64,000 nt of DNA, from assembly GCA_045803545.1 (NCBI GenBank), contig JBJMOW010000005.1:1088001-1152000 (forward strand), written 5' to 3'. Numbering within the stretch: the first letter of the stretch is position 1; each line of letters begins with the position of its first letter. Under the pieces are notes generated by a model. That model made no database searches. It was not told the origin of the DNA and saw nothing but the letters and a program-made list of their open reading frames with translations. Of the stretch, positions 1 to 13,679 are shown piece by piece. This DNA comes from Gemmatimonadaceae bacterium (lineage in GTDB: Bacteria; Gemmatimonadota; Gemmatimonadetes; Gemmatimonadales; Gemmatimonadaceae). Both the position numbers and the translations under genes were made by a program.

Positions 1-174
1 GTCGCCGACTCAGTTGGCAACGCGGACGCGGGACCGATAGCGGTGCGGCTGGGCGATTTGTGGAGCGAGTTTATTCGCGTCGCTGACGAGGCGCGCGATC
101 CCGCCGCACCCCGAAAGCGTGCGGCGGTTATCCCCCTCCTCGACCATATGAAGGGGATCCTGGAGTGGGATTAG
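1..174 (+). CDS. 3' end of a hypothetical protein (partial, runs off window)
   Basis: Frame 1 is open from base 1 (VADSVGNADAGPIAVRLGDLWSEF...KGILEWD) to TAG at 172-174 and converges on the AraC gene stop. Confidence 0.55.
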   Translation, partial: VADSVGNADAGPIAVRLGDLWSEFIRVADEARDPAAPRKRAAVIPLLDHMKGILEWD

Positions 175-1031
175 CTCGGCTCTCGTCTCCGGCGTCGCCG
201 GCGATGTGATCCATTGTGCCCCGGCGGGTGGCCAGGGTCGTCCTCCAGCGATCCGTCGTCACCCGCGCGGAGCCACTCCAGCACCGCAGCAATCCCGGCT
301 TCGTCAGTAAGCCTGGTGCGGACACGCGCCGGGGTTTCCCCAAAGACGCTGACCCAGTGCTGCGAAAAGATGCGCGCCGTTTTGTATCCGAGCTTGATTG
401 ACACGTCGAGAACCGAATAACCCGGATCGCGCAAATAGCCAAAGCCACGCAACACTTTCGCTGCGATTAGCAGGCGCTTCGGCGAGCCGAGCCGCGCCGA
501 ATCGAGATTCCGGTAGACGCTGACAATGGCGATCCCCGCTTCCATCGCCAGGTCGAAAGCGCTCGTGTAGCGGTGTGGCTGCTCGAAAAGATTCTCGATA
601 GTGACTGAAAGCTGCCTCGGGATCTGTGAGAGCCTTCCGCGAAGCGCCTCGATCACGTCGTGGGTCAGCGCATTTCCTTCCAGCCGTTCGACGCGCTCCT
701 TGAACCCCTCGGGCTCGTCGTCGAAACGATGCAGCACGACCTCCTTCAATCCCAGCCGCCCCAGCTGAGCTACCGCACTGAATTGAGGTGCATGAAGGGT
801 TACGTATGCGATCAGCGGTAGCGACGGATACCGCTTCAGCAGGCCAGCGACCGCGCCGACGTTCATGATCCCGTCAGCGGCCGGGTCGAGGATGACAACG
901 CTGACGGGTTTGCGGCGGATAAACGACTCGAGCTCTTGCCAGTTGTCGGCAATCAAAAGCTCGGGCTCCTCGGCGAAAACGTGCTTGACGTGGGCGAGGA
1001 GTCGAGTCGGCAGGAACGCCGCAACGCTCAA
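171..1031 (-). CDS. AraC/XylS-family transcriptional regulator with N-terminal receiver-like domain
   Basis: C-terminal double HTH (DLAMEAGIAIVSVYRNL; SVLDVSIKLGYKTARIFSQHWVSVFGETP); N-terminal VVILDP...PLIAYVT receiver-like pattern. Confidence 0.85.
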   Translation of the reverse strand: MSVAAFLPTRLLAHVKHVFAEEPELLIADNWQELESFIRRKPVSVVILDPAADGIMNVGAVAGLLKRYPSLPLIAYVTLHAPQFSAVAQLGRLGLKEVVLHRFDDEPEGFKERVERLEGNALTHDVIEALRGRLSQIPRQLSVTIENLFEQPHRYTSAFDLAMEAGIAIVSVYRNLDSARLGSPKRLLIAAKVLRGFGYLRDPGYSVLDVSIKLGYKTARIFSQHWVSVFGETPARVRTRLTDEAGIAAVLEWLRAGDDGSLEDDPGHPPGHNGSHRRRRRRREPS

Positions 1032-1093: not shown

Positions 1094-1156
1094 TGATAAG
1101 AAAAGTGCTGTTTCTGATAGGAAACAAGCATTTTCTGATAAGAAAATGCCATTTCG
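1094..1156 (+). promoter_or_regulatory. Three 21-bp direct repeats, probable AraC-family operator upstream of the small lipopeptide gene
   Basis: TGATAAGAAAAGTGCTGTTTC / TGATAGGAAACAAGCATTTTC / TGATAAGAAAATGCCATTTCG starting at 1094, 1115 and 1136; -10-like TACGTT at 1174-1179. Confidence 0.75.
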
Positions 1157-1227
1157 GCATCCGCCGTGGGTCATACGTTGAGCGTGGTCAGTACGCCAAC
1201 GAACCCATTCTTTTTCAGGAGCTTCAA

Positions 1228-1359
1228 ATGATCCGCCGTCGCCTTCTCATCGTCGCCACCGTCGTCGCTTCCGTCGTCCTCGCCGCTTGCTCAGACATGA
1301 CGGCTCCGACGAATGATGCATCCTGCCCGGTCAGCACCGGGTCGTCTACCTGTAAGTAA
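1228..1359 (+). CDS. 43-aa secreted lipopeptide precursor (lipobox LAAC, C-terminal C-x8-C loop)
   Basis: AGGAG RBS at 1217-1221, ATG 1228; MIRRRLLIVATVVASVVLAA-CSDMTAPTNDASCPVSTGSSTCK. Confidence 0.8.
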   Translation: MIRRRLLIVATVVASVVLAACSDMTAPTNDASCPVSTGSSTCK

Positions 1360-1374: not shown

Positions 1375-2601
1375 TCAGCCGGTAGCGACAGCGGCCTTGC
1401 GCAGCTCCGAAATGTCGTGAGCTGCCGCAAGGACGTCGTGCGTCAGTGGTGCAAACGTGGGCTGCGTTCCCGCTTTGCGAGCCTTGGAGCGCAATGCGGA
1501 GAGGGCTTCGTCCGCCTTAAAAGAAACTGAGAAGATCTGATTATGATCCGCGCAACTCTTGGCCTCCGACAAAGCCTGCGCCGCAGTTTCGTATCGGTCG
1601 AATCGTTCGAGGCCCTCTCCAAGCATCAGCAGAAAATGCGATTTAAGCAAAGGCGGGAGAGGCTCACGTCTCAGTTCGCTCGTGTAGTCGTCGAACGCCG
1701 TCTCCTGACCATCAAACGAAGCCAATTCCATAAGGTTGATAATCGCCTGCCAGCGAACCCATTTAGTCTGCGCTGTCGCGGCCATCAAAAGGTAGGAATC
1801 ACGCGCGGCATCTCTCATACCTAGCTCGCCAAAAAACGCACCGAGGTCGCCCAGAATGCCTTCGCGATCTGCGTGTGCGCTCGAGAGGCGAAGCGCGTCG
1901 TGCGCCAGTTTTACGGCTTCAGCCGGATCACCGCGGCGATGCGCCAGCGCCGCGCGACTGTGCAATGCAATCGATTGCACTTCCCGAATTTCGAGGTCGG
2001 CGGCCTGCGTGAGCACGTCGTCGAGAATGCTCTGTGCCTGCGGCAGGTTTCCCTTCGCCATATAGGTGTTCGCGATACCGACCTGCACCGTCAGCACACC
2101 TTGGCGATCGCCCATGGTGTCAGCGATGTACGCGGCCTGCGAATACGCGCGCGCCGAGGTTTCCCAATCGCCATTGCGACGGGCAGCACCCCCTACAGCG
2201 ACATTCGCTTCAACGGCGAGCTTGGCGTTCTTCTCCGGACGCGAAATCTTCGCGACGGTCTGGTACACATCGGCTGCGAGCGACCAGTTCGCGTCGTAGT
2301 CGAGCGCCCGACCGTACCCGAGCAGTGATCGGCACACGATCTCGTCAATCGTGCCCCGCGCGATCGTCTCCTCGAGTACGGTGGTAAGGACGCCGCGAAT
2401 CGGATCCCCGGCGCTCACCTCTTCCACTGAACTGCGCACACTGTGCAGCTGTGCCCAGTTCGCCGGGTCGACCGACGCCGAATTGTCGGTATAGGAATCG
2501 ACCAGTCGCAGGACCGAGAGTCCGGCAAACACAGAACGCCAGGAGGCTGAATCCTCCCTTAGCGTACCAAGCGTATCGAAGAAGACTTGATGCCGGATCA
2601 T
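1375..2601 (-). CDS. Cytoplasmic tetratricopeptide-repeat protein
   Basis: Repeated helical TPR-like units (GGAARRNGDWETSARAYSQA; IANTYMAKGNLPQAQSILDDV; AALAHRRGDPAEAVKLAHDAL); no signal peptide and no HTH evident. Confidence 0.8.
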   Translation of the reverse strand: MIRHQVFFDTLGTLREDSASWRSVFAGLSVLRLVDSYTDNSASVDPANWAQLHSVRSSVEEVSAGDPIRGVLTTVLEETIARGTIDEIVCRSLLGYGRALDYDANWSLAADVYQTVAKISRPEKNAKLAVEANVAVGGAARRNGDWETSARAYSQAAYIADTMGDRQGVLTVQVGIANTYMAKGNLPQAQSILDDVLTQAADLEIREVQSIALHSRAALAHRRGDPAEAVKLAHDALRLSSAHADREGILGDLGAFFGELGMRDAARDSYLLMAATAQTKWVRWQAIINLMELASFDGQETAFDDYTSELRREPLPPLLKSHFLLMLGEGLERFDRYETAAQALSEAKSCADHNQIFSVSFKADEALSALRSKARKAGTQPTFAPLTHDVLAAAHDISELRKAAVATG

Positions 2602-2620: not shown

Positions 2621-2696
2621 GTGACTCAAAAATGCCACTGTGCACCCGTTTCCGAAATGCCTGTTTCGTATCACTGGAGGGGCGATTTCGTGTCAC
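2621..2696 (-). promoter_or_regulatory. Copies of the same operator motif upstream of the TPR gene
   Basis: Minus strand TGATACGAAACAGGCATTTCGG (2673-2652) and TGACACGAAATCGCC (from 2695); an inverted copy TGACTCAAAAATGCCACT on + at 2622. Confidence 0.65.
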
Positions 2697-2716: not shown

Positions 2717-4372
2717 CTAAGTGCCCTTATTTGGGGGGCGGGATCCGGTCCCGTAAACGCGCTCCTCCATGGGGATATACCAGTCGGCCAGCGAAAACCA
2801 CCATGCATCCGGTCGCATCACATTCGTGTGGATGCGACGGTGAATCGCGATAATCTTGCGCGCTTCGTACAGCCAGATTGCGGGCGCGTCATCGTTGATG
2901 ATTGAGTACGCCCTGGAAAACAAGTCGCGCGCGTGTGTGGCATCTGCTTTGAGCGCGGTGTCGAGAGCGCTGTCGAAAGCAGCGTTCCTGTAATGACCGT
3001 AATTCACTCCATTGGAGCTGGCGCCTTCGCTGCTCCATGCGTCCCAGGTCCCGTCCGGACTAGCACTCATGGTCCAAACGTCCAGCGCTGCATCAAAGAC
3101 GCCCTTTCGCTCGCGCTCAGTCTCCGTGCTCGGATCGAGCTGTTCCAGATTCACGCGTATGCCCGCGCGTTTCAGCTGGTCCTGAAGAATTACTCCAGCG
3201 CGCATCCTGTTCAGGCTGCTGGTGGGAATGGCGATGTTGAATGCGAGCTGGCTGCCGTTCTTCGCTCGAATGCCAGCACTCCCGCGCAACCAGCCGAGCG
3301 AATCAAGCAGTGCGCTTGCGCGCGCCGAGTCGTAAGGAAGCTGAGAAAGTTTCGGATCAGTCGTGGGATAAACGCGCACCGTCGGACCCGCGGGCACAAT
3401 TGCGAAAGTATCGAGGATGTTTCTGGCCAACGTCTGGCGATTGAGCGCGAGCGCAATCGCGCGACGCATCTCTCGGTCGGCGAACAGGCGATGCGGCTTC
3501 GTCGTATCGTTCGGGTCCCGGAGATTGAAGCGCATGAACACGTAGTCCATCCCCGGCACTATCACCGCGCGCAGCGCAGGCTGATGCTCAAGTTCGGCGA
3601 GATCCTGAGGGCGTAGTCCGTCGAACACGTCCGCATCGCCGCGCAACAGTCGGGTGAGCGCGGCCGGGAAGTCGGGCACAATGCTCCAGATGACTCGGTC
3701 GACCCGTGCACGACCGCGGTAGTTGCCGGTGTCGGCAACCAATTCGATGCTTTCCCCCTTGTTCAGTTTGCGAAGACGAAACCGTCCGCTGCCGACCGAA
3801 GGTGGTGGCGATTCACGCAGTGACGATACGCGAATGTGCTCGAGTTGATGCGACGGCAGTATCAGCAACTGCGCAGCGGCGTCGAGGAACTGCGTCGGCA
3901 ATCGACGACGAAACCAGAATTTTGCAGTCAGCGAATCGACGATTGTGACAGAATCGATGTTGCCGAGCGACGACTCATACCGCGACGCGAGCTGGGGGTT
4001 TTTATTGAGAGCGAAGGTGAACGCGACGTCGCGCGCGGTGACGCGCTCCCCGTCATGCCAGCGCGCGCGCGGATTGATTTCAAAGGAGATCTGCATCGAG
4101 TCAGTCGACCAGCTCCACTTGTTTGCTAGCTGTGGTCGAAAGCCGCGATCGCTGAGGGTGTTGAGATCGGGCCCGACGTCCGCCAGATAATCGTAGATCT
4201 GCTCGGACACCTGCTTCGCCTGGGTGGTAAGCACCAGTGGAGGGAATAGCGTACCGGGATCCTGAACGGCGATGATGACAATGGTACCACCGGTCTCCGG
4301 TCGCTGTCGCGCCCCGTTCTCCGAGCATCCGGCGAGCGCAGCAATCATCGTGAACAGCGCGCGTTTCTTCAT
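2717..4372 (-). CDS. ABC transporter peptide-binding lipoprotein (SBP family 5, OppA/DppA-like)
   Basis: Lipobox LAGC; family-5 motifs PQLANKWSWS, RWHDGERVTARDVAFTF, VGSGRFRL, RRAIALALNR. Confidence 0.9.
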   Translation of the reverse strand: MKKRALFTMIAALAGCSENGARQRPETGGTIVIIAVQDPGTLFPPLVLTTQAKQVSEQIYDYLADVGPDLNTLSDRGFRPQLANKWSWSTDSMQISFEINPRARWHDGERVTARDVAFTFALNKNPQLASRYESSLGNIDSVTIVDSLTAKFWFRRRLPTQFLDAAAQLLILPSHQLEHIRVSSLRESPPPSVGSGRFRLRKLNKGESIELVADTGNYRGRARVDRVIWSIVPDFPAALTRLLRGDADVFDGLRPQDLAELEHQPALRAVIVPGMDYVFMRFNLRDPNDTTKPHRLFADREMRRAIALALNRQTLARNILDTFAIVPAGPTVRVYPTTDPKLSQLPYDSARASALLDSLGWLRGSAGIRAKNGSQLAFNIAIPTSSLNRMRAGVILQDQLKRAGIRVNLEQLDPSTETERERKGVFDAALDVWTMSASPDGTWDAWSSEGASSNGVNYGHYRNAAFDSALDTALKADATHARDLFSRAYSIINDDAPAIWLYEARKIIAIHRRIHTNVMRPDAWWFSLADWYIPMEERVYGTGSRPPNKGT

Positions 4373-4529
4373 GCGGGTGAAGGTACAAGCTCGGCGGGAC
4401 AGTGAAAGCACAGAATTGGCTTGATAGAAAACCGACATTTTGGGATATAGAAGTGACATTGACCTCCTTGCGTACGAGTGAAAACGTCCATGATACATGG
4501 GAGAAGCTGCCGCAAAGCGAGTCGACGCG

Positions 4530-4823
4530 ATGCCTACCTTTCAGGTGGCGCACCTGCGACACGGGGATCAGGACATGGTCATCGTGCCGGTAGACCGCGC
4601 TTTTGGCAAGCGATCTACCACCGAGCAGGCGCGCATTCAAGAAGCGTTTCAGCGCAGCGCCAGTGCGGCAAACCTTCCGGGAGTGGTTGTCCTGGTGTGG
4701 GAGGATTCCGCCGGGAAGATGGCCCATCGCGCGCCGCCGACACTCAACGACTTCCTCAAGAGCATAGACATGGTCTATGTCGCAACGGCGCTCAATCGCA
4801 CACTGAGTTTGGAAACGCGCTGA
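4530..4823 (+). CDS. Small hypothetical protein
   Basis: MPTFQVAHLRHGDQDMVIVPVD..., globular composition, fills the gap between SBP and methyltransferase; start 4497 also possible. Confidence 0.65.
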   Translation: MPTFQVAHLRHGDQDMVIVPVDRAFGKRSTTEQARIQEAFQRSASAANLPGVVVLVWEDSAGKMAHRAPPTLNDFLKSIDMVYVATALNRTLSLETR

Positions 4824-4851
4824 TACTCGCGCGTCCGGACCGCGGACGCGC

Positions 4852-5604
4852 GTGAAGTTCAAGGACCACTTCTCAAATCGCGCTGCGCAGTACGCGACCT
4901 TTCGGCCGCACTATCCGAAATCGCTCTTCAGCTACCTGGTTACGCTATGCCGGCACCACGATTTTGCTCTCGATTGCGGGACGGGTAACGGTCAGGCGGC
5001 GGTCGAGATCGCGGAGCACTTTTCGCGCGTCATCGCCACGGACCCAAGCTCGGCGCAAATCGAGAAAGCGACCCGCCGCCGAAATATCGAGTACCGAGTC
5101 GCTCGCGCCGAGGACAGCGGTCTGGCGGCGCGGTCGGTAGATCTGGTTACAGCAGCCCAGGCGCTGCATTGGTTCGACGCTCCCGCATTCTTCGCCGAGG
5201 CAACACGTGTTTTAAAACGCGATGGTGCGATCGCTGTCTTTGGGTATGGCGATCCGATGCTCGACACTCGTCCGTTGCAGGACATACTGCACGAGTTCAA
5301 CCGCGGAAAGCTCGAGCCGTATTGGGCCGGCGAGCGACAGACACTGCTCGACGGTTATCGCACCGTCGAATTTCCATTCGTCGAGCTCACGTCACCCGAG
5401 TTTGAGCTGCGCGTTACGTGGACGTTCGATCAGCTTCTCGGATACCTGCGCACGTGGTCATCGACCGCGAGATACATCGAGCAGCACGGTGTCGATCCCG
5501 TAGCAACCGTCCAGCCCACTCTCGCGGCAGAATGGGGTGATGCCGATCGAGCCCGCATCATCCGTTGGCCGATATATCTCCGCGCCGGGAAAGTGCGTGA
5601 TTGA
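4852..5604 (+). CDS. Class I SAM-dependent methyltransferase
   Basis: ALDCGTGNGQ motif I; DLVTAAQALHWFD. Confidence 0.9.
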   Translation: MKFKDHFSNRAAQYATFRPHYPKSLFSYLVTLCRHHDFALDCGTGNGQAAVEIAEHFSRVIATDPSSAQIEKATRRRNIEYRVARAEDSGLAARSVDLVTAAQALHWFDAPAFFAEATRVLKRDGAIAVFGYGDPMLDTRPLQDILHEFNRGKLEPYWAGERQTLLDGYRTVEFPFVELTSPEFELRVTWTFDQLLGYLRTWSSTARYIEQHGVDPVATVQPTLAAEWGDADRARIIRWPIYLRAGKVRD

Positions 5605-5644
5605 AGCGGTTGAAACCCGTCGTAGGCCCTGTGATACTGCGAGC

Positions 5645-6952
5645 ATGACCAAAAACAAGCTCGTCGCCCCGCGCGCAGCGATGCACGTTGCCGTCGTCGC
5701 GATCGTAACATTTCCAGGCGCCCCTCGAGCGCTCGCGCAGCACGAGCACCACGCCATGCAGATGGGTGCATCGGACACATCGGTGAGTGCACCAGTCAAG
5801 CCGACGCGTCCCGTTGCCGACTCCGCCGTCGTCGCCGATTCCCTCCTCTCGCTGTGCAAGCCGCGCCGAGCTGAGTCGACGGACAGCTACGCCACATGCA
5901 TCGGCGATGGAATCGGCGCATTATCGTCCGCCGGCAACATTGCGCTGGCGATGGGAGCGCTCGACAAGGTCGTGCACGATGACCCATCGCTGATTCTGGT
6001 CAGCCATCCACTCGCGCATGCGCTCGGCTACGCGGTGCGGTCGACTCCGGCAACTGCGACGCGACTGTTGTCGCAGTGTGACGACCGGTATCAGTCAGGA
6101 TGCTATCACGGCATCCTGCAGCGCTACTTCGACGCGCGAATGGGAATGCCGATCTCTCAGAGCTTTCTCACCGCGCCGTGTGATGGGCTGCGCGGCACCG
6201 CCGACCAATTCCGGCTATTCGATTGCCTGCACGGGACGGGTCACGGCCTGATGATGTACCACGGCTACGATGTGAATGCATCGCTGCACGACTGCGATCG
6301 CCTGTCGTCAACGTGGGATCAACGGAGTTGCTGGAGTGGCGTGTTCATGGAGCACAACATGGGCGCGCGGATGATGGTGTTTGGTGACGGTAAGTTCGGC
6401 ATGCACCGCCACTCGATGCCCTCCGGATCGGTCGTGCTGTTTCGACCGAAGGATCTTCATTTTCCATGCGACTCCACAGCGGCGAAGTATCGCTACGCCT
6501 GTTACGAGCTCCAGTCGGATCTGATTCTGCCTGCGGTGCAGCAGGACTACAGGAAAGCAGGAGCGGTCTGCGACGACGCCGGCTCGCCTCAGCTCGTCGC
6601 GTTCTGCTATGTGGGATTGGGAAGAAACGCGTCGGGCGCATCCGCATTTCAGTACAACGGAATCAAGAAACGTTGTACGCTGGCTTCATCCTTCGGTGAG
6701 CCATTCTGCTATCAGGGTGCGGTTCGCCACCTGGCATATGCTCCCAGCGAGCTGCCGCGCGGCGTCGGCTTTTGCAAATCGTTTCCGGCTGGCGACAATC
6801 GGGTGCATTGCTGGAATGGCATTGGACAACAAATCGCCGGGTTCTTCGCGGACCTGCCCGCAAGAAGACGCGCCTGCCAAACTGAATCAACCGACGATGT
6901 CGCTGCGTGTCTCGTCGGCGCAGGCGCCAATACTGTAGCGCACGAAGAGTAG
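5645..6952 (+). CDS. Secreted Cys/His-rich helical-repeat protein of unknown function
   Basis: Signal peptide ending ALA-Q; 18 Cys in paired spacing; HPLAHALG, CYHG, CLHGTGHG, GVFMEH motifs. Confidence 0.75.
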   Translation: MTKNKLVAPRAAMHVAVVAIVTFPGAPRALAQHEHHAMQMGASDTSVSAPVKPTRPVADSAVVADSLLSLCKPRRAESTDSYATCIGDGIGALSSAGNIALAMGALDKVVHDDPSLILVSHPLAHALGYAVRSTPATATRLLSQCDDRYQSGCYHGILQRYFDARMGMPISQSFLTAPCDGLRGTADQFRLFDCLHGTGHGLMMYHGYDVNASLHDCDRLSSTWDQRSCWSGVFMEHNMGARMMVFGDGKFGMHRHSMPSGSVVLFRPKDLHFPCDSTAAKYRYACYELQSDLILPAVQQDYRKAGAVCDDAGSPQLVAFCYVGLGRNASGASAFQYNGIKKRCTLASSFGEPFCYQGAVRHLAYAPSELPRGVGFCKSFPAGDNRVHCWNGIGQQIAGFFADLPARRRACQTESTDDVAACLVGAGANTVAHEE

Positions 6953-7087
6953 AGTTATGGGCTTTGGCGCGCCTGCAACGGGCTACCATTGCTCGAATCC
7001 GGTGCGCGAATTGCCTGATCAGTTAACGGTCGCGCTCCAATTCAGTGGCGTGGTGCGTAATTGAAGAGTGCAATTGTCGAGGCTGCA

Positions 7088-7755
7088 ATGACAGAAAAAC
7101 GCTGTTCCGTCCGGCTGCTGGTGTTCGGCGCATCGCTGCGCGAGGGATCGATGAACGACAAACTCGCGTCGCTCGCGGCTCAGGTGGCCGAGGAAAAGGG
7201 CGCGACCGTCGATCGCGCAACGATGAGTGATTTCGAATGCCCCGCGTACGATCTGGATGTCGAGGTCGGGACTGGTCTGCCTAGCGGCGCCCAGGCACTA
7301 CACGACAAACTCATTGCGAGCGACGGATTCATCATCGCCTCGCCTGAATACAACGCGTCGATGCCGGGCGTGCTCAAAAACACCATCGACTGGGTCTCAC
7401 GCTTTCATCCGCAGCCCTTGAACGGCAAGCAGGGACTGCTGGTCGCGGCGTCACCGTCGATGACGGCGGCAAGATTGGCCTGTGGGCGCTCCGGCAGCCG
7501 CTCGAACACCTTGGCGCCCGCATCTATCCCGACATGTTTGCGCTGGCGCAGGCGCATCATGCGTTCGACGACGCCGGCCGAATCGCCGATGGCAAGCTGC
7601 AAACCTGGTTCGAGTCGACAATCGATTGCTTCATCGATCTGGTGGAAGCGTCGAAGCACTACCCGAATCTCAAGAAACAGTGGGTCGAGTTTCTCGGCGA
7701 AAAACCAGACGAGGAGACGACTCGCGTCGAGCTTGGAGAAACTGCCGCAGTCTAA
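7088..7755 (+). pseudogene. NADPH-dependent FMN reductase with a 1-nt frameshift (pseudogene or sequencing error)
   Basis: GASLREGSMN and SPEYNASMPGVLKNTIDW in one frame; adding one G at 7465-7466 gives SPSMTGGKIGLWALRQPLEHLGARIYPDMF... to TAA 7755. Confidence 0.75.
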
Positions 7756-7769
7756 CGCGGGAGAACCGT

Positions 7770-8726
7770 TTGCAAAAGCGACAGATTGGATCGCTCGAAG
7801 TATCGATCGTCGGTATCGGCTGCAATAATTTTGGTGGCCGTATCGACGAGGCGCGCACTCGCGAAGTCATCGACGCAGCGCTCGATGAGGGCGTCAACTT
7901 TTTCGACACCGCCGACATGTACGCCGAGGGTCGCAGCGAGGAGCTGATCGGCAAGTTCCTCGGGCCACGTCGTGGTGACGTGATCATCGCTACGAAATTC
8001 GGCAACGAAATGCCTGGTCAAGGCAGCGGCGCCCGACCGAAATACGTGAGGAAGGCGATCGAAGCGAGTCTGCGCCGCATGCGCACCGTCTACATCGATT
8101 TGTACCAGCAACACGTGCCGGATCCTGATGTTCCGATCGCCGAAACGCTCGGGGCGCTCGACGATCTGGTAAAGGCTGGAAAAGTGCGCGAGATCGGCTG
8201 CTCCAATTTTTCCGCGGAACACATTCGACAGGCTCAGGCGGCGTCGCGTCGCAAGCGAGGATCAGCGCGTTTCGTGAGCGTGCAGAACGAGTACAGTCTT
8301 TTGCATCGCGTGCCGGAAGAAGGCGTGCTCGACGAGTGCGAGCGCGAAGGACTCGCGTTCCTGCCCTTCTTCCCGCTCAAGAGTGGGCTTCTGACTGGGA
8401 AATATCGCCGGGGTCAGCCGATACCTGAGGGCACCCGCGTCGCCAAATACGAACGCTATCGGAAAATGTTGACCGCCGAAAACATCGAGAAAGTCGAGGC
8501 CCTAATCAATTACGCGCAGTCCAAGGGGCACACTATTCTCGATTTGGCGATCTCCTGGTTGCTGGCGCATCGACCGGTAGCGTCGGTGATCGCAGGCGTT
8601 AGCTCCGCCGAGCAAGTGCGCGCCAACGTGCGTGCCGCGGGCTGGGAGCTCACCTCGCAGAATCTCGAAGAAATTGACGCAGCTCTCGGTTTAGTAGGGA
8701 AAGGAGTAGCGCGAGTGTCTGCATAA
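7770..8726 (+). CDS. Aldo/keto reductase
   Basis: GIGCNNFG, FDTADMY, IATKFG, IDLYQQH, IGCSNF, QNEYSLL; TTG start with GGGAG RBS. Confidence 0.92.
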   Translation: MQKRQIGSLEVSIVGIGCNNFGGRIDEARTREVIDAALDEGVNFFDTADMYAEGRSEELIGKFLGPRRGDVIIATKFGNEMPGQGSGARPKYVRKAIEASLRRMRTVYIDLYQQHVPDPDVPIAETLGALDDLVKAGKVREIGCSNFSAEHIRQAQAASRRKRGSARFVSVQNEYSLLHRVPEEGVLDECEREGLAFLPFFPLKSGLLTGKYRRGQPIPEGTRVAKYERYRKMLTAENIEKVEALINYAQSKGHTILDLAISWLLAHRPVASVIAGVSSAEQVRANVRAAGWELTSQNLEEIDAALGLVGKGVARVSA

Positions 8727-9417: not shown

Positions 9418-10611
9418 TTACTGGACCGCGTTGATCATGTCGAAGATCGGCAGATACATCGCCACCACCATGCCGCCGACCACCACGCCGAGGAAGACGA
9501 TCATGATCGGCTCGAGGAGGGACAGCAGGTTGCTGACGGCTGCGTCGACTTCTTCATCGTAGAAGTCGGCGATCTTGGAAAGCATTTCGTCCAGACCACC
9601 GGTTTGCTCACCGACTGCGATCATCGAGATAACCATCGGCGGGAACACTTTCGACTTTTGCAGAGGTTGCGCGATCGTATCACCGCCGGCAATCGACGCT
9701 CTTGAGTCCATAATCGCGTCCTGAATGACGCGGTTGCCGGCCGTCTTCGCTGTGATTTCGAGGCCCTCGAGAATGCTGACACCGGAGCTGATCAACGTAC
9801 CGAGCGTACGGGTAAAGCGTGACACCGCCGACTTGCGGAGCACGTCACCGAGGACCGGCATCTTCAGCATCAAACGGTCGATAGCCAGCTTACCGTTGGA
9901 GGTCGCGTAGTACTTCTTCAAGAAGTAGCCGGCGGCCGCGCCGATGGCGAGCACCATCCACCAGTAGCTCTTGAGAAAGCGCGAGGCGCCGATGACGATA
10001 CGTGTCGGCAGAGGCAGCGCGAGTCCCACTGAAGCAAACATGCCTTCGAATACCGGGATGACGAAAATCAGCAGCACCACGATTGCAATTGCCGCGACGC
10101 TCATGATGACTGTAGGATAGATCATCGCGCCCTTCACCTTTCTCACCAGGGCGTCGTTCTTTTCAAGGAACGTCGCCAGACGCATCAGAATGGTGTCGAG
10201 AATACCACCGGCTTCACCGGCGGCGACCATGTTCACGTACAAGTTGGTGAACGCGCGTGGGTGTTTTGAAAGGGCGTCGGCGACTGTATTACCGGACTCG
10301 ACGTCGAATACCACTTTCTTGGTGACTTCAGCCAGCGCTTTGTTGTCGGTTTGCTCGGCGAGAATCGTGAGGGCTTGCACCAGCGGCAAGCCCGAGTTGA
10401 TCATCGTCGAGAACTGACGGGTGAAGATGACGACGTCGCGGGTCTTGATCGAGCCGCGGCCGATCTTCGCGGATCCGCCCTGATCGATTTTGACTACGCT
10501 GAGGCGCTGCTTACGGAGTTGTGCAATAACGTCATCGCGAGAGGCAGCGTCGATCGTCGCAGTGCGAAGATCGCCATTGAATGCTCTCGCGGTATAAGTG
10601 AACGAAGCCAT
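9418..10611 (-). CDS. pilC: Type IV pilus inner-membrane platform protein (GspF family)
   Basis: FTRQFSTMINSGLPL, AGEAGGILD, GEQTGGLDEML, EPIMIV, MYLPIF. Confidence 0.95.
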   Translation of the reverse strand: MASFTYTARAFNGDLRTATIDAASRDDVIAQLRKQRLSVVKIDQGGSAKIGRGSIKTRDVVIFTRQFSTMINSGLPLVQALTILAEQTDNKALAEVTKKVVFDVESGNTVADALSKHPRAFTNLYVNMVAAGEAGGILDTILMRLATFLEKNDALVRKVKGAMIYPTVIMSVAAIAIVVLLIFVIPVFEGMFASVGLALPLPTRIVIGASRFLKSYWWMVLAIGAAAGYFLKKYYATSNGKLAIDRLMLKMPVLGDVLRKSAVSRFTRTLGTLISSGVSILEGLEITAKTAGNRVIQDAIMDSRASIAGGDTIAQPLQKSKVFPPMVISMIAVGEQTGGLDEMLSKIADFYDEEVDAAVSNLLSLLEPIMIVFLGVVVGGMVVAMYLPIFDMINAVQ

Positions 10612-10625
10612 TAACTAACCCTCTT

Positions 10626-11831
10626 TTAACGTCTGGCCGGCGAACCGGCTCCTGGCCGGGCAGTCGCCGGTTTGGCGCCTCCAGGCTTACCACTTCCATC
10701 ATCATCCGTCGGCAGCTGTCCGATCATGCGCTGGAACTCGGTCGGATCACCGCTCACGCGCAGGCACTCCTCAGCCGTAACTTCCCGCGCCATGTACAGT
10801 TGATAAAGCGCATCGTTGAGCGTCTGCATGCCAAATTTCTTACCCGCCTGCATCGACGAGTAGATCTGGTGAACTTTGTCGTCGCGAATGAGGGCGCGAA
10901 TGGCCGGGGTGACTACGAGAATCTCAGCTGCCATGACACGACCGCGGCCGCTCGCCTTAGGTAACAGTGTCTGAGTGACGATTCCCTCGAGCACGAAAGC
11001 CAGCTGGGCTCTGACCTGCGACTGCTGGTGGGACGGGAACACGTCGATGATACGGTTGATCGCTTCTGCCGCGGAGTTGGTGTGCAAGGTGGCGAATGCG
11101 AGGTGACCTGTTTCGGCGATAGTCAGCGTCGCTGCGATCGTCTCCAGGTCGCGCATTTCACCTACCAGAATAATGTCGGGGTCTTCACGCAGCGCGTATT
11201 TCAGAGCGTTGGCGAACGACTTGGTGTCGCTGCCGATTTCGCGCTGGTTGATGATGCAGCTCTGGTGCTTGTGAATGAATTCGATCGGGTCTTCGACGGT
11301 GATGATATGGCCTTTGCGCTCGCGGTTGATCTTGTCGATCATCGCGGCGAGTGTCGTCGACTTACCAGAACCCGTCGGGCCGGTGACTAGCACCAGGCCG
11401 CGCGGCTTCTCCGCCATTTTGGCGATCGAGCCGGGCAGGCCGAGCTGATCGAAGGTCTTGATCGCAAACGGAATCTGACGAACTACCATCGAGACGCAGC
11501 CGCGCTGCTTGAAGACGTTGCCACGGAATCGCGCGAGGTTCTGAATACCGAACGAGAAGTCCAGCTCGTCCTCGAGCTCAAAACGCTTCTTTTGCTGTTC
11601 GGTGAGAACTGAATAGGCGAGCTGGAGGGTGTCTTTCGGGTTGAGCTCGTACTCGGCAGTCGCATTGGTGATGTCACCATCGACGCGCAGCTTTGGCTTT
11701 TCGCCGGCGACGATGTGAAGATCAGATGCGTTGCGCGAGACCATCTCCTCGAGAAGCGCGCGAAGGTTGATTCCCGCCGCCGGCTTCGGCGGTCCGGACG
11801 GGGACGAGGTATCAATGAACGGTAAAGTCAT
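10626..11831 (-). CDS. pilT: Type IV pilus retraction ATPase
   Basis: GPTGSGKSTT, EDPIEF, LREDPD, AETGHL, TLHTN, AIRALIRD motif. Confidence 0.95.
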   Translation of the reverse strand: MTLPFIDTSSPSGPPKPAAGINLRALLEEMVSRNASDLHIVAGEKPKLRVDGDITNATAEYELNPKDTLQLAYSVLTEQQKKRFELEDELDFSFGIQNLARFRGNVFKQRGCVSMVVRQIPFAIKTFDQLGLPGSIAKMAEKPRGLVLVTGPTGSGKSTTLAAMIDKINRERKGHIITVEDPIEFIHKHQSCIINQREIGSDTKSFANALKYALREDPDIILVGEMRDLETIAATLTIAETGHLAFATLHTNSAAEAINRIIDVFPSHQQSQVRAQLAFVLEGIVTQTLLPKASGRGRVMAAEILVVTPAIRALIRDDKVHQIYSSMQAGKKFGMQTLNDALYQLYMAREVTAEECLRVSGDPTEFQRMIGQLPTDDDGSGKPGGAKPATARPGAGSPARR

Positions 11832-11834
11832 CGT

Positions 11835-13679
11835 TTAATGGTGATGCGTGGTGTGTGAATCAGCCGCTGTCTCGCGGACGACTTGCTCAAGAGTGGTAAT
11901 TCCTTTGAGGACCTTCAGCCAACCGTCCATGCGGAGCGTTAGCATCCCTTCCTCAATGGCTGCCTTCTGAATCTCAGCCGCGCCGGCGCTCTGCATGATC
12001 AGCTTTCTGACGCGCGGCGTCAGATTAAGGACTTCGTATAGTCCCTGACGGCCACGAAGTCCGCTTCCCTCGCACTGCTCGCAGCCTTTGCCGCGGAAGA
12101 TCGGAATGTCTTCCATCTTGGTGTCGAGGGTAAGGCGTTCCATGTACGGCTTGGCAGCGTCGCTGGCGCGTACCTTCGCGTCGTTGAGCGCCATGTCCGT
12201 GAACTTCATGTCGCGGAGTGTGACGCCGCCACCCACTTTCGCTGCTGAGGCTTCGGCCTCATCCATCTTGTAGGCTTCGCCGCAATTCTTACAAACGCGA
12301 CGCACCAGACGTTGAGCGAGCACCAGATTGAGTGCCGATGCAACGTTGAAGGGCTCGAGACCCATGTCGATCAAACGGGTCACCGTTTCCGGCGCCGAGT
12401 TGGTGTGCAACGTCGAGAGCACGAGGTGACCGGTGAGTGCGGCCTTGATGGCGATACCACCGGTTTCGAGGTCTCGAATTTCTCCCAACATGATGATGTT
12501 GGGGTCCTGACGAAGGAATGCTTTCAGCGCGGCCGCGAAGGTCATTCCGATCTCGGTTCTCACCAGCACCTGGTTGATGCCGAAGAGGTTGTATTCGACC
12601 GGGTCCTCGGCCGTCATGATGTTGACGTCGATGTTGTTGATCTTTGACAGCGCTGAGTAAAGCGTGGTCGTTTTACCAGAACCGGTCGGACCGGTGACGA
12701 GCACCATTCCATAAGGGTTCGAGATCGCTTCCATTAGCTCCCGCTCTGCGCGCGGCTCGATGCCGAAGGTGCTCAGATCAAGCGACAGGTTGCCCTTGTC
12801 GAGAATACGGAGCACGACTTTTTCGCCGAACAGCGTCGGCAGCGTCGAGACACGGAAGTCGATGACCTTGCTGCCGATCTTCAGCTTGATACGGCCGTCC
12901 TGCGGAACTCGACGCTCGGCGATGTTCAGGTTCGCCATGATCTTGAAGCGTGAGATTAGCGCGGGACGCATCTTGATCGGCGGCTTCATGATCTCCTGGA
13001 GCGCACCGTCGATGCGGTAGCGGACGCGGAGCTCCTTCTCGAAGCACTCGAAATGAATATCCGACGCGCCCTTTCTTAGCGCGTCGGTCATGATTGCGTT
13101 GATAAGCTTGACGACGGGCGCTTCGTCGATGAGGGCGCCACCGGCGTTGTCGGCTGCCGATTCGTTCTCACTCTCGAGAATCTCGATATCGTCGTCGTCA
13201 TCGATCTCGGCGAGGAGGTTCTCCATCTGGGCTTCGCCCGATGAGTAGAACTTCTCGATCGCGTTGCGGAGCGTGAACTCGCCGGCAATTACCGGGAAGA
13301 TGTCGAGACGGGTGATGAACTTGATGTCGTCGAGCACCGACATCGTCGCCGGATCCGACATGGCGACGGTGAGAGTGCGACCGTCGCGCTTGAGCGGGAG
13401 AACGTTGTGCTTGAGCGCCAGCTCACCGGGAATGAGCTTCGCAATGCGTCCATCGACCTGGAACTTGGTGAGGTCGACAGCGGGCATTTTGTGCTGACGA
13501 GCAAGCATTCTGGTGAGGTCGGTTTCCTTTACGAAACCGAGCTTGACCAGGTTATAGCCGACTCTAGTGCCGTTGTGTCTCTGTTCCTGGAGAGCCTTAT
13601 TGAGCTGATCCTGAGTGATCAGCCCTTCTCTCAGCAGCAGATCGCCGATCCTCGGCGTTTTCGCGGCAGGTGCTGTCAA
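11835..13679 (-). CDS. pilB: Type IV pilus extension ATPase with N-terminal MshEN domain
   Basis: RIGDLLLREGLITQDQLNKALQEQ; RRVPQDGR; GPTGSGKTTT; LRQDP; Zn-binding CKNC/CEQC. Confidence 0.93.
   Translation of the reverse strand: MTAPAAKTPRIGDLLLREGLITQDQLNKALQEQRHNGTRVGYNLVKLGFVKETDLTRMLARQHKMPAVDLTKFQVDGRIAKLIPGELALKHNVLPLKRDGRTLTVAMSDPATMSVLDDIKFITRLDIFPVIAGEFTLRNAIEKFYSSGEAQMENLLAEIDDDDDIEILESENESAADNAGGALIDEAPVVKLINAIMTDALRKGASDIHFECFEKELRVRYRIDGALQEIMKPPIKMRPALISRFKIMANLNIAERRVPQDGRIKLKIGSKVIDFRVSTLPTLFGEKVVLRILDKGNLSLDLSTFGIEPRAERELMEAISNPYGMVLVTGPTGSGKTTTLYSALSKINNIDVNIMTAEDPVEYNLFGINQVLVRTEIGMTFAAALKAFLRQDPNIIMLGEIRDLETGGIAIKAALTGHLVLSTLHTNSAPETVTRLIDMGLEPFNVASALNLVLAQRLVRRVCKNCGEAYKMDEAEASAAKVGGGVTLRDMKFTDMALNDAKVRASDAAKPYMERLTLDTKMEDIPIFRGKGCEQCEGSGLRGRQGLYEVLNLTPRVRKLIMQSAGAAEIQKAAIEEGMLTLRMDGWLKVLKGITTLEQVVRETAADSHTTHHH

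Follow-up and report, generated by a model that had tools for sequence, protein, structure and literature searches.

Peptide signalling through cytoplasmic receptors has been described for Gram-positive Bacillota (PMC10075063, PMC11343458). In the cited parts of this literature, the Rap-Phr systems (RapF-PhrF-ComA; RappLS20-Phr-RcopLS20) combine a small exported propeptide gene with the gene of a ~400-aa TPR protein that has no DNA-binding domain of its own (PMC7430634, PMC11343458, PMC3246441), and RRNPPA propeptides with tandem duplications are reported (PMC11343458). The survey of RRNPP/RRNPPA systems by Bernard et al. covered Firmicutes only and, as far as its cited text goes, accepts Sec/SPI signal peptides at the strict level and Sec/SPII signal peptides only at the relaxed level (PMC10075063). 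Rap-Phr systems occur in Bacillus and on its plasmids and phages. The rap and phr genes are usually co-oriented. For the sex pheromones of Enterococcus (cCF10, cAD1; PrgX/TraA), peptide uptake supplies a cytoplasmic receptor of the RRNPP type, and the signal is a signal-peptide fragment of an unlinked, full-size lipoprotein. The autoinducing peptides of the agr type contain a small ring with variable residues defining specificity groups. Entericidin A and B and other minimal lipoproteins, at ~40-50 aa, combine a lipobox with a mature part of very few residues. One class of AraC/XylS activators has tandem direct-repeat sites that overlap the -35 region and keep a set distance to the -10 box.

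The locus analysed here lies in a 64,000-nt stretch of a Gemmatimonadaceae genome (the window) and holds the genes of a predicted lipopeptide precursor, a TPR protein and an AraC-type regulator. It resembles Rap-Phr in the small gene of a putatively exported propeptide beside a TPR protein of ~400 aa without its own DNA-binding domain, in the C-terminal position of the candidate signal, in the tandem copies in some precursors, in a separate transcription factor as the presumed target, and in a similar receptor fold. It differs from Rap-Phr in its diderm host, the lipoprotein (SPII) precursor, the predicted disulfide loop that is often present and the dedicated pseudo-receiver/AraC protein of the cassette. 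The peptide and TPR genes are convergent, unlike rap and phr, and relatives of the TPR protein were not found in viral contigs or plasmids with a single-protein query. No match of the TPR protein to Rap was found at the sequence level: the 83 TPR proteins searched against Pfam gave no Rap-specific family, and the best 60 of 96 PDB sequence matches include no Rap chain.

Set against the RRNPP/RRNPPA signature, the propeptide (43 aa) falls within the range of 10-100 aa and the receptor (408 aa, with TPRs) within that of 250-500 aa, and the two genes are adjacent in 92 of 103 loci. The lipobox pattern suggests SPII, which would place the secretion signal at the relaxed level at most, and the host group is not Bacillota, all 15 named records among the close TPR relatives being Gemmatimonadota. 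By analogy, the cassette would work like Rap-Phr, with membership in the Rap family unsupported by sequence. A search of titles and abstract beginnings, outside of which most subscription papers fell, found no paper on such a cassette in Gemmatimonadota or diderms.

The precursor is a predicted lipoprotein, as in Enterococcus. In the cassette, however, it is encoded by a dedicated 43-aa ORF with conserved features in the mature tail, and the TPR protein has no HTH. The small ring of the peptide, with its variable residues, could define specificity groups as in agr, but this ring is a predicted and optional disulfide, and the three-gene unit contains neither an AgrB-like enzyme nor a histidine kinase. 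Unlike the entericidins, the peptide has no family match, a polar non-helical tail and a fixed TPR/AraC context. The regulator shares with the AraC/XylS family the AraC HTH and 21-bp-spaced sites at a fixed distance from a -10 box; unlike typical members, its N-terminus is an atypical receiver fold, and the cassette contains no kinase gene.

The peptide gene and the three-gene cassette

The regulator gene is divergent from the peptide gene and the TPR gene is convergent to it (Table 1), with the stop codons of the latter two 15 nt apart. On translation, the peptide gene shows what the initial annotation had described: a basic n-region (R3-R5), a hydrophobic h-region, the lipobox L18-A19-A20-C21 and a mature part of 23 residues. 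In the mature part, the linker S-D-M-T-A-P-T-N-D-A-S after Cys21 leads to the C-terminus C33-P-V-S-T-G-S-S-T-C42-K, where C33 and C42 enclose eight residues in a 10-residue ring. A mechanical ORF list begins this frame at GTG 1093 (88 aa), from where it runs through the repeats at 1094-1156. The initial annotation had considered this start too far upstream, across an operator; relatives keep the ATG and a ribosome-binding site at the position of 1228, and the correction is therefore right and GTG 1093 is rejected. The AGGAG ribosome-binding site lies 6 nt 5' of the ATG.

Table 1. Positions of the features discussed in the text (coordinates of the window)
Feature	Position	Strand	Basis or remark
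Regulator, 286 aa: atypical receiver domain and AraC-type HTH	171..1031	-	structure model, family and alignment data
Three direct repeats TGATA(A/G)GAAA..., 21-bp spacing, predicted AraC operator	1094..1156	+	repeat and motif scans
TACGTT, predicted -10 box of the peptide promoter	1174..1179	+	last repeat starts 38 bp upstream
Ribosome-binding site AGGAG	1217..1221	+	conserved in relatives
Lipopeptide precursor gene, 43 aa	1228..1359	+	conservation, codon bias, profile matches
Predicted Sec/SPII signal peptide, residues 1-20, LAA/C	1228..1287	+	pattern; A20 and C21 invariant (83/83); Lgt, LspA present
Predicted lipidated Cys21 and conserved linker C-S-D-M-T-A-P	1288..1308	+	linker pattern in 80/83; P27 invariant
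C33-x8-C42 loop, predicted disulfide	1324..1353	+	Cys parity
Heptamer V35-T41, candidate signal, inside the C33-C42 loop	1330-1350	+	heptamer profile; tandem variant in L054
TPR protein of 408 aa, all helical, without HTH or evident signal peptide; candidate receptor for a peptide in the cytoplasm	1375..2601	-	
Predicted operator pair (2680-2695, 2658-2673) and -10-like CATTTT before the TPR gene	2629..2695	-	motif scan
Solute-binding lipoprotein of family 5 (Opp/Dpp type), orphan; may be a subunit of a peptide importer	2717..4372	-	5' of the TPR gene
Predicted operator pair before the ORF 4497-4823	4422..4463	+	motif scan; genus relatives
108-aa protein, conserved in the genus	4497..4823	+	9/12 genus loci

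Differences between the peptide gene and nine orthologues of the same genus fall mostly in third codon positions (139, against 84 and 71 in the other two). Of the 21 closest AraC matches, 19 have a full lipobox ORF on their 5' side and the remaining two are cut by contig ends. A peptide profile search returned 524 proteins at E<=0.001. The start, ribosome-binding site and lipobox are conserved across at least four families. At the level of sequence, the 43-aa ORF is thereby confirmed as genuine, beyond chance. No Pfam or NCBIfam family reached its cut-off for the peptide. Weak profile matches extend to many long lipoproteins of this genome, and the T-[AG]-P linker is common to Gemmatimonadota lipoproteins.

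All features of a bacterial lipoprotein (basic n-region, hydrophobic h-region, lipobox with invariant Cys) are present. The product is predicted to be a lipoprotein precursor with a Sec/SPII signal peptide, on the basis of the lipobox pattern and of its Ala-Cys, which is invariant in 83 of 83 aligned cassette peptides, as is the Pro of the linker. Lgt, LspA and DsbA-like proteins are encoded in the genome. The residue at +2 after the lipidated Cys is never Asp in the 83 peptides; the Ser found here would direct a lipoprotein towards the outer membrane under E. coli rules.

In eight soil metatranscriptomes only 0.05-0.10 of the sequence words were present. In four of these eight whose contigs were compared with the window, contigs touch the peptide region in all four, variant loop alleles included, and one of them matches 168 nt exactly over 1281-1448; in the same four, no contig lies over 2754-3869 or 4986-5700. 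The contigs over the peptide region give a weak hint of expression, contigs from RNA libraries being no proof of transcription.

The TPR profile has matches in 139 of 301 Gemmatimonadota genomes at E<=1e-20, a tally that takes in weak matches, maybe other TPR proteins, and one unpublished genome (G266) that enters no other result given here. At 103 distinct TPR loci, which are mostly stronger matches and paralogues and not a random draw, we found a convergent lipobox ORF in 92, a downstream AraC gene in 90 and both in 87. As controls, the opposite strand and shuffled sequences were searched for the peptide in the same way, and neither gave a match at any of the 103 loci. For the 83 complete cassettes, a set without L130, L140, L057, loci with a partial TPR gene and loci lacking the peptide or the AraC gene, the TPR and AraC trees agree: 43 of 80 splits are shared, and 3 of 41 well-supported TPR splits are in conflict. 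Judged by these alignments and trees, a conserved three-gene unit exists in Gemmatimonadota.

Some genomes contain several cassettes with differing tails. In this genome, the paralogue search found no second TPR protein of the family and no second short peptide, and one orphan AraC paralogue, 37% identical, on C5. The arrangement also varies. In the f4 family (L048, L125, L127) the AraC gene lies on the opposite side of the TPR gene; L121 and L122 have longer TPR frames and two AraC matches, with no peptide found; and the cassette copy L130 (G111:C3), with a split TPR gene and a peptide that overruns the usual end, looks broken. Further along the window lie an ORF at 7061-7828, presumably NADPH-dependent FMN reductase-like, whose frame seems to change near the middle, and, at 9418-13679, what we take to be PilC-, PilT- and PilB-like type IV pilus genes.

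The peptide tail and the TPR protein

Apart from the lipobox Cys, two Cys are present in 63, none in 29 and an odd number in 0 of 92 cassette peptides, a count that leaves out the apparently broken L130. Among 117 distinct database homologues, 94 have two extra Cys, 21 have none and two have an odd number, both of these carrying long extended tails. Because the extra Cys come strictly in pairs, a disulfide likely forms after export. A ring surrounds the tail in 52 of 83 cassette peptides and a loop lies upstream of the tail in 4, while 27 are linear; loop sizes range from 6 to 11. The disulfide ring of the initial annotation is thus backed by the Cys pairing, yet a general rule by which the ring is the signal can be rejected, as 31 of 83 peptides have no loop around the tail. 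According to the alignment, the ring is optional and the shared element of the peptides is the C-terminal heptamer.

The heptamer follows the motif x-x-x-[GN]-S-[NG]-[TN] and stands at the terminus of most peptide forms. At its positions 4 to 7, G/N occurs in 60, S in 49, N/G in 54 and T/N in 53 of the 83 peptides, with 9 of the 83 tails positioned by hand. In L054, from a family of another order, the mature part consists of the linker and three identical tandem heptamers, and further forms with two or three copies occur among the database homologues. In L117, L118 and L123, two perfect or imperfect heptamer-like units are seen (IGPH followed by a second Gly-rich unit; HSPDPG twice), and these doubled units look like further signs of internal duplication. 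The peptides of L048 and L125 have a long acidic linker with N-N-N at its end.

In the close clade, 67 distinct peptides display 45 distinct loops on a fixed C-P-x-x-x-G-S-x-T-C frame, in which P and G are fixed, S and T nearly fixed and positions 3, 4 and 7 variable. These 67 peptides hardly vary in the last seven signal residues and in the linker, although the agreement is inflated by collecting the matches through shared words and filtering them on the linker. The paired Cys, the heptamer with its tandem copies and the loop variants on a fixed frame point to selection on the peptide tail.

The structure model of the TPR protein (pLDDT 95.5) comprises an N-terminal helical part and a TPR superhelix, with about seven helical hairpins, a linker and a final helix. 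TPR_12 was detected with 36.4 bits (cut-off 30.1) and in 72 of 83 orthologues. In a structural search with the model, eukaryotic LGN is the top match (Z 23.3, rmsd 5.7, 292 residues aligned), followed by Pins and APPBP2. The Rap protein of phage phi105 (8rte; Z 20.7, rmsd 5.9, 298 aligned), RappLS20 (6t3h; Z 20.2, rmsd 8.6, 324 aligned), RapH (Z 19.3) and NprR (Z 18.9) are also among the matches. Because LGN tops the list and APC/C, OGT and MalT reach Z 19.6-20.6, the modelled fold is generic: it is compatible with peptide binding and provides no placement in the Rap family. A structural resemblance of RappLS20 to LGN is noted in the cited text on that protein (PMC7430634).

Residues of the predicted groove, assigned by TPR periodicity and not from coordinates, include R141 in 83 of 83, D252 in 78 of 83 and Arg at position 248 in 75 of 83 orthologues (Gly in this copy). 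Groove positions diverge less than outer ones (0.35 versus 0.49). Covariation of tail and groove was not significant in a column test (p=0.12) or across 41 independent pairs (rho 0.26, p=0.095), and the other seven regions were not significant either. All-pairs partial correlations, which are not phylogenetically independent, were 0.24 for tail and AraC and 0.05 for tail and TPR. A complex prediction with TPR residues 1-395 and peptide residues 14-43 scored 0.02 and 0.01 against a mark of 0.32; with controls not folded, it is neutral on binding.

The AraC-type regulator and its predicted operator

The regulator model (pLDDT 92.1) shows a five-strand receiver-like domain followed by an AraC HTH, and Foldseek matches it to receiver domains (2qr3, TMt 0.78) and the DNA-binding domain of AdpA (3w6v, TMt 0.81, rmsd 1.9). 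HTH_18 was found in 83 of 83 regulators and Response_reg in 4 of 83 (E<=0.01). D49 is kept in 81 and Thr/Ser in 68 of 83 orthologues, whereas the acid pair and the conserved Lys of the canonical response regulator signature are missing. The N-terminal domain is accordingly read as a pseudo-receiver.

In the gap between the AraC and peptide genes, the best direct-repeat spacing is 20-21 bp in 65 of 83 cassettes, as opposed to 12 of 83 shuffled sequences. A paired site followed by a [TC]A-n3-T box occurs in 43 of 83 cassettes and always at 38-39 bp (37-40 allowed), while a sigma-70 promoter scan found no full site at 900-1500. This layout fits an activator bound over the -35 region, and the peptide gene is therefore likely switched on by the neighbouring AraC regulator. 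The operator sequence differs between clades in step with the first recognition helix of the AraC protein at the locus: TGATA goes with helix IVSVYR in this genus, and TG[TC]CGC with RRTCER or RGTCAR in family f2. This match of operator and helix may partly stem from shared descent.

The operator motif TGATANRAAANNGRCA has 16 exact copies in this genome, compared with 0 for a reversed-pattern control, and it was found in 22 of 27 other genomes of the genus and in 1 of 12 outside it. Thirteen of the 16 copies fall outside long ORFs, a position shared by 11 of 100 random sites. Six of nine genus genomes in which no close AraC gene was found, all six being 69-84% complete, nevertheless carry the motif; the two near-complete ones lack the motif and a close AraC gene alike, and the motif is missing in two genus genomes that carry a more distant AraC. 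All 12 genus loci examined, which were chosen partly for the site, carry the operator pair in front of the TPR gene. Outside the genus it is not general, with 7 of 59 loci versus 8 of 59 on the opposite strand.

A segment of the window at 4422-5604 holds an operator pair, the 108-aa ORF and a methyltransferase gene, the first two being conserved in 9 of these 12 genus loci. The 108-aa protein, for which no family reached its cut-off and whose look-alikes in the Atlas are unnamed clusters, is likely a regulon member. Tandem operator-like sites lie at G000 C2:84791, C2:789337, C2:852232, C4:593602, C4:1007676, C4:1020447, C4:1452944, C4:1459714 and C6:359912. The genes behind the scattered sites, read without family searches, encode a 56-aa Cys/His protein, an ABC ATPase, exported proteins, a charged 86-aa protein and island-like genes.

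At G000:C5:74569-78958 (L190:2569-6959), an orphan AraC paralogue gene without TPR or peptide gene is divergent from the gene of a large S8 subtilase. An operator-like pair with TAGCGT at +38 faces the subtilase gene, and another site faces the orphan AraC gene. The subtilase could be a regulon member and a candidate for the tail-releasing enzyme; it is not found beside the similar AraC paralogues in L191 or L192. The sequence upstream of a more distant and widespread AraC paralogue (~22-25% identical; L026, L027) appears to resemble an RNase P RNA gene.

A possible signalling circuit and its alternatives

From sequence and gene order, we consider it somewhat probable that the cassette is a Rap-Phr-like circuit in a diderm, in which an exported, clipped and re-imported tail controls the AraC protein through the TPR protein. 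The signal is likely the heptamer VSTGSST inside the probable disulfide loop. After Sec export, the precursor would receive its lipid from Lgt and lose its signal peptide to LspA, and Dsb would oxidise the loop and thereby protect the tail. After release of the tail by a protease, an Opp/Dpp system would carry it back to the cytoplasm; there the ring would open by reduction, and the tail could bind the concave groove of the TPR protein. This protein would control the kinase-less pseudo-receiver/AraC activator, and freed AraC would bind the 21-bp repeats over the -35 region and turn on the peptide gene in a positive feedback. In this genus, AraC may also activate the TPR gene, as a brake, and the scattered promoters. 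We infer each of these steps: export, lipidation, oxidation, release, uptake, TPR binding, control of AraC and feedback on the peptide gene. The RapF-ComA logic, in the cited part of its description, serves as the model for an anti-activator (PMC3246441), and we moderately favour a RapF-like TPR protein that is switched off by the peptide over a co-activator. Compared with Phr peptides, the peptide faces extra barriers in the lipid anchor and the two membranes.

Neither release nor uptake is assigned to a gene of the unit. No protease gene belongs to it at the 103 TPR loci. Present at just 8 of 98 loci, the solute-binding protein gene 5' of the TPR gene is not counted among the core genes of the cassette. 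A complete Opp/Dpp operon is located on C5, and its binding protein is 43% identical to that of the window. A second orphan family-5 binding protein gene, at G000:C4:808600-818700 (L188:5618-15707), stands beside genes of two TPR-HD proteins, in a region that also holds further TPR proteins and two lipoprotein-like ORFs. The position of both orphan binding proteins beside TPR genes is suggestive.

Alternatively, the lipopeptide may stay with the cell and serve as a cell-autonomous monitor of envelope or export, its tail meeting the cytoplasmic TPR protein only upon a change in export, lipidation, oxidation or turnover; in that case the cassette would sense the envelope of the producing cell and not its neighbours. 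Such a monitor requires neither release nor import and would account for the lipid anchor, for a lipobox that does not vary and for the conservation of the T-[AG]-P linker, and the putative regulon, in an unannotated reading, includes small and stress-like proteins. We regard it as rather unlikely, since three identical tandem heptamers and 45 loops in 67 relatives better fit a released, diversifying signal, and strict Cys pairing would have no purpose if the tail were read before export. The same tail features, paired Cys, heptamer motif and tandem repeats, are left unexplained if the signal is instead cut from the signal peptide, as the 7-8 residues ahead of Cys21, and the mature lipopeptide is a by-product. 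The initial annotation had offered this by reference to Enterococcus, whose pheromones are described in the cited text as 7-8-mers from lipoprotein signal peptides (PMC4173765). The last seven signal residues are indeed nearly invariant in the 67 close homologues, if inflated by the shared-word collection, and the all-pairs partial correlation of signal and TPR is 0.23. Across independent pairs, however, signal end and groove gave rho -0.15 (p=0.34), and phylum-wide the stretch is an ordinary Ala/Leu-rich h/c-region, which makes a signal-peptide fragment distinctly improbable.

The peptide may also be no more than a target of the AraC regulator, a small lipoprotein of the envelope (entericidin-like or other) with a membrane function of its own, while the TPR protein senses something else; the predicted AraC-dependent promoter, which is strong, and the ordinary lipoprotein signal would suit this. 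The entericidin-like alternative of the initial annotation finds no support in the searches, in which 0 of 83 peptides match entericidin families (Pfam, NCBIfam, E<=0.01) and no other small-lipoprotein family reached its cut-off. The mature part is polar and Gly/Ser/Pro-rich, with no evident amphipathic helix, and its gene stays tail-to-tail with the TPR gene at 92 of 103 loci, unlike the other genes with operators, which are scattered; a role as mere output is thus quite unlikely. That the ORF is spurious or a non-coding element, a doubt that its very short length might raise, is hardly credible in view of the conserved start, ribosome-binding site and lipobox, the third-position bias and hundreds of homologues. 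The re-imported tail remains the preferred reading. The suggestion that the gene encodes a signalling lipopeptide gains from the TPR partner, the divergent AraC gene with its operator repeats and the tandem tails, and needs to be amended in that the ring does not define the signal.

In its widest form, this reading is phylum-wide peptide quorum sensing in a two-membraned bacterium that evolved independently of Rap-Phr, with a disulfide-protected and re-imported heptapeptide, a TPR receptor gating a pseudo-receiver AraC protein, loop variants acting as separate languages and a genome-wide regulon. We put this forward tentatively, as a serious possibility that falls short of being probable. The ligand, receptor, activator, operator and candidate target promoters can all be named, and the circuit is therefore testable. 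If it is true, an abundant soil phylum would have its own peptide language, with a new precursor design that combines a lipid anchor with an optional disulfide loop.
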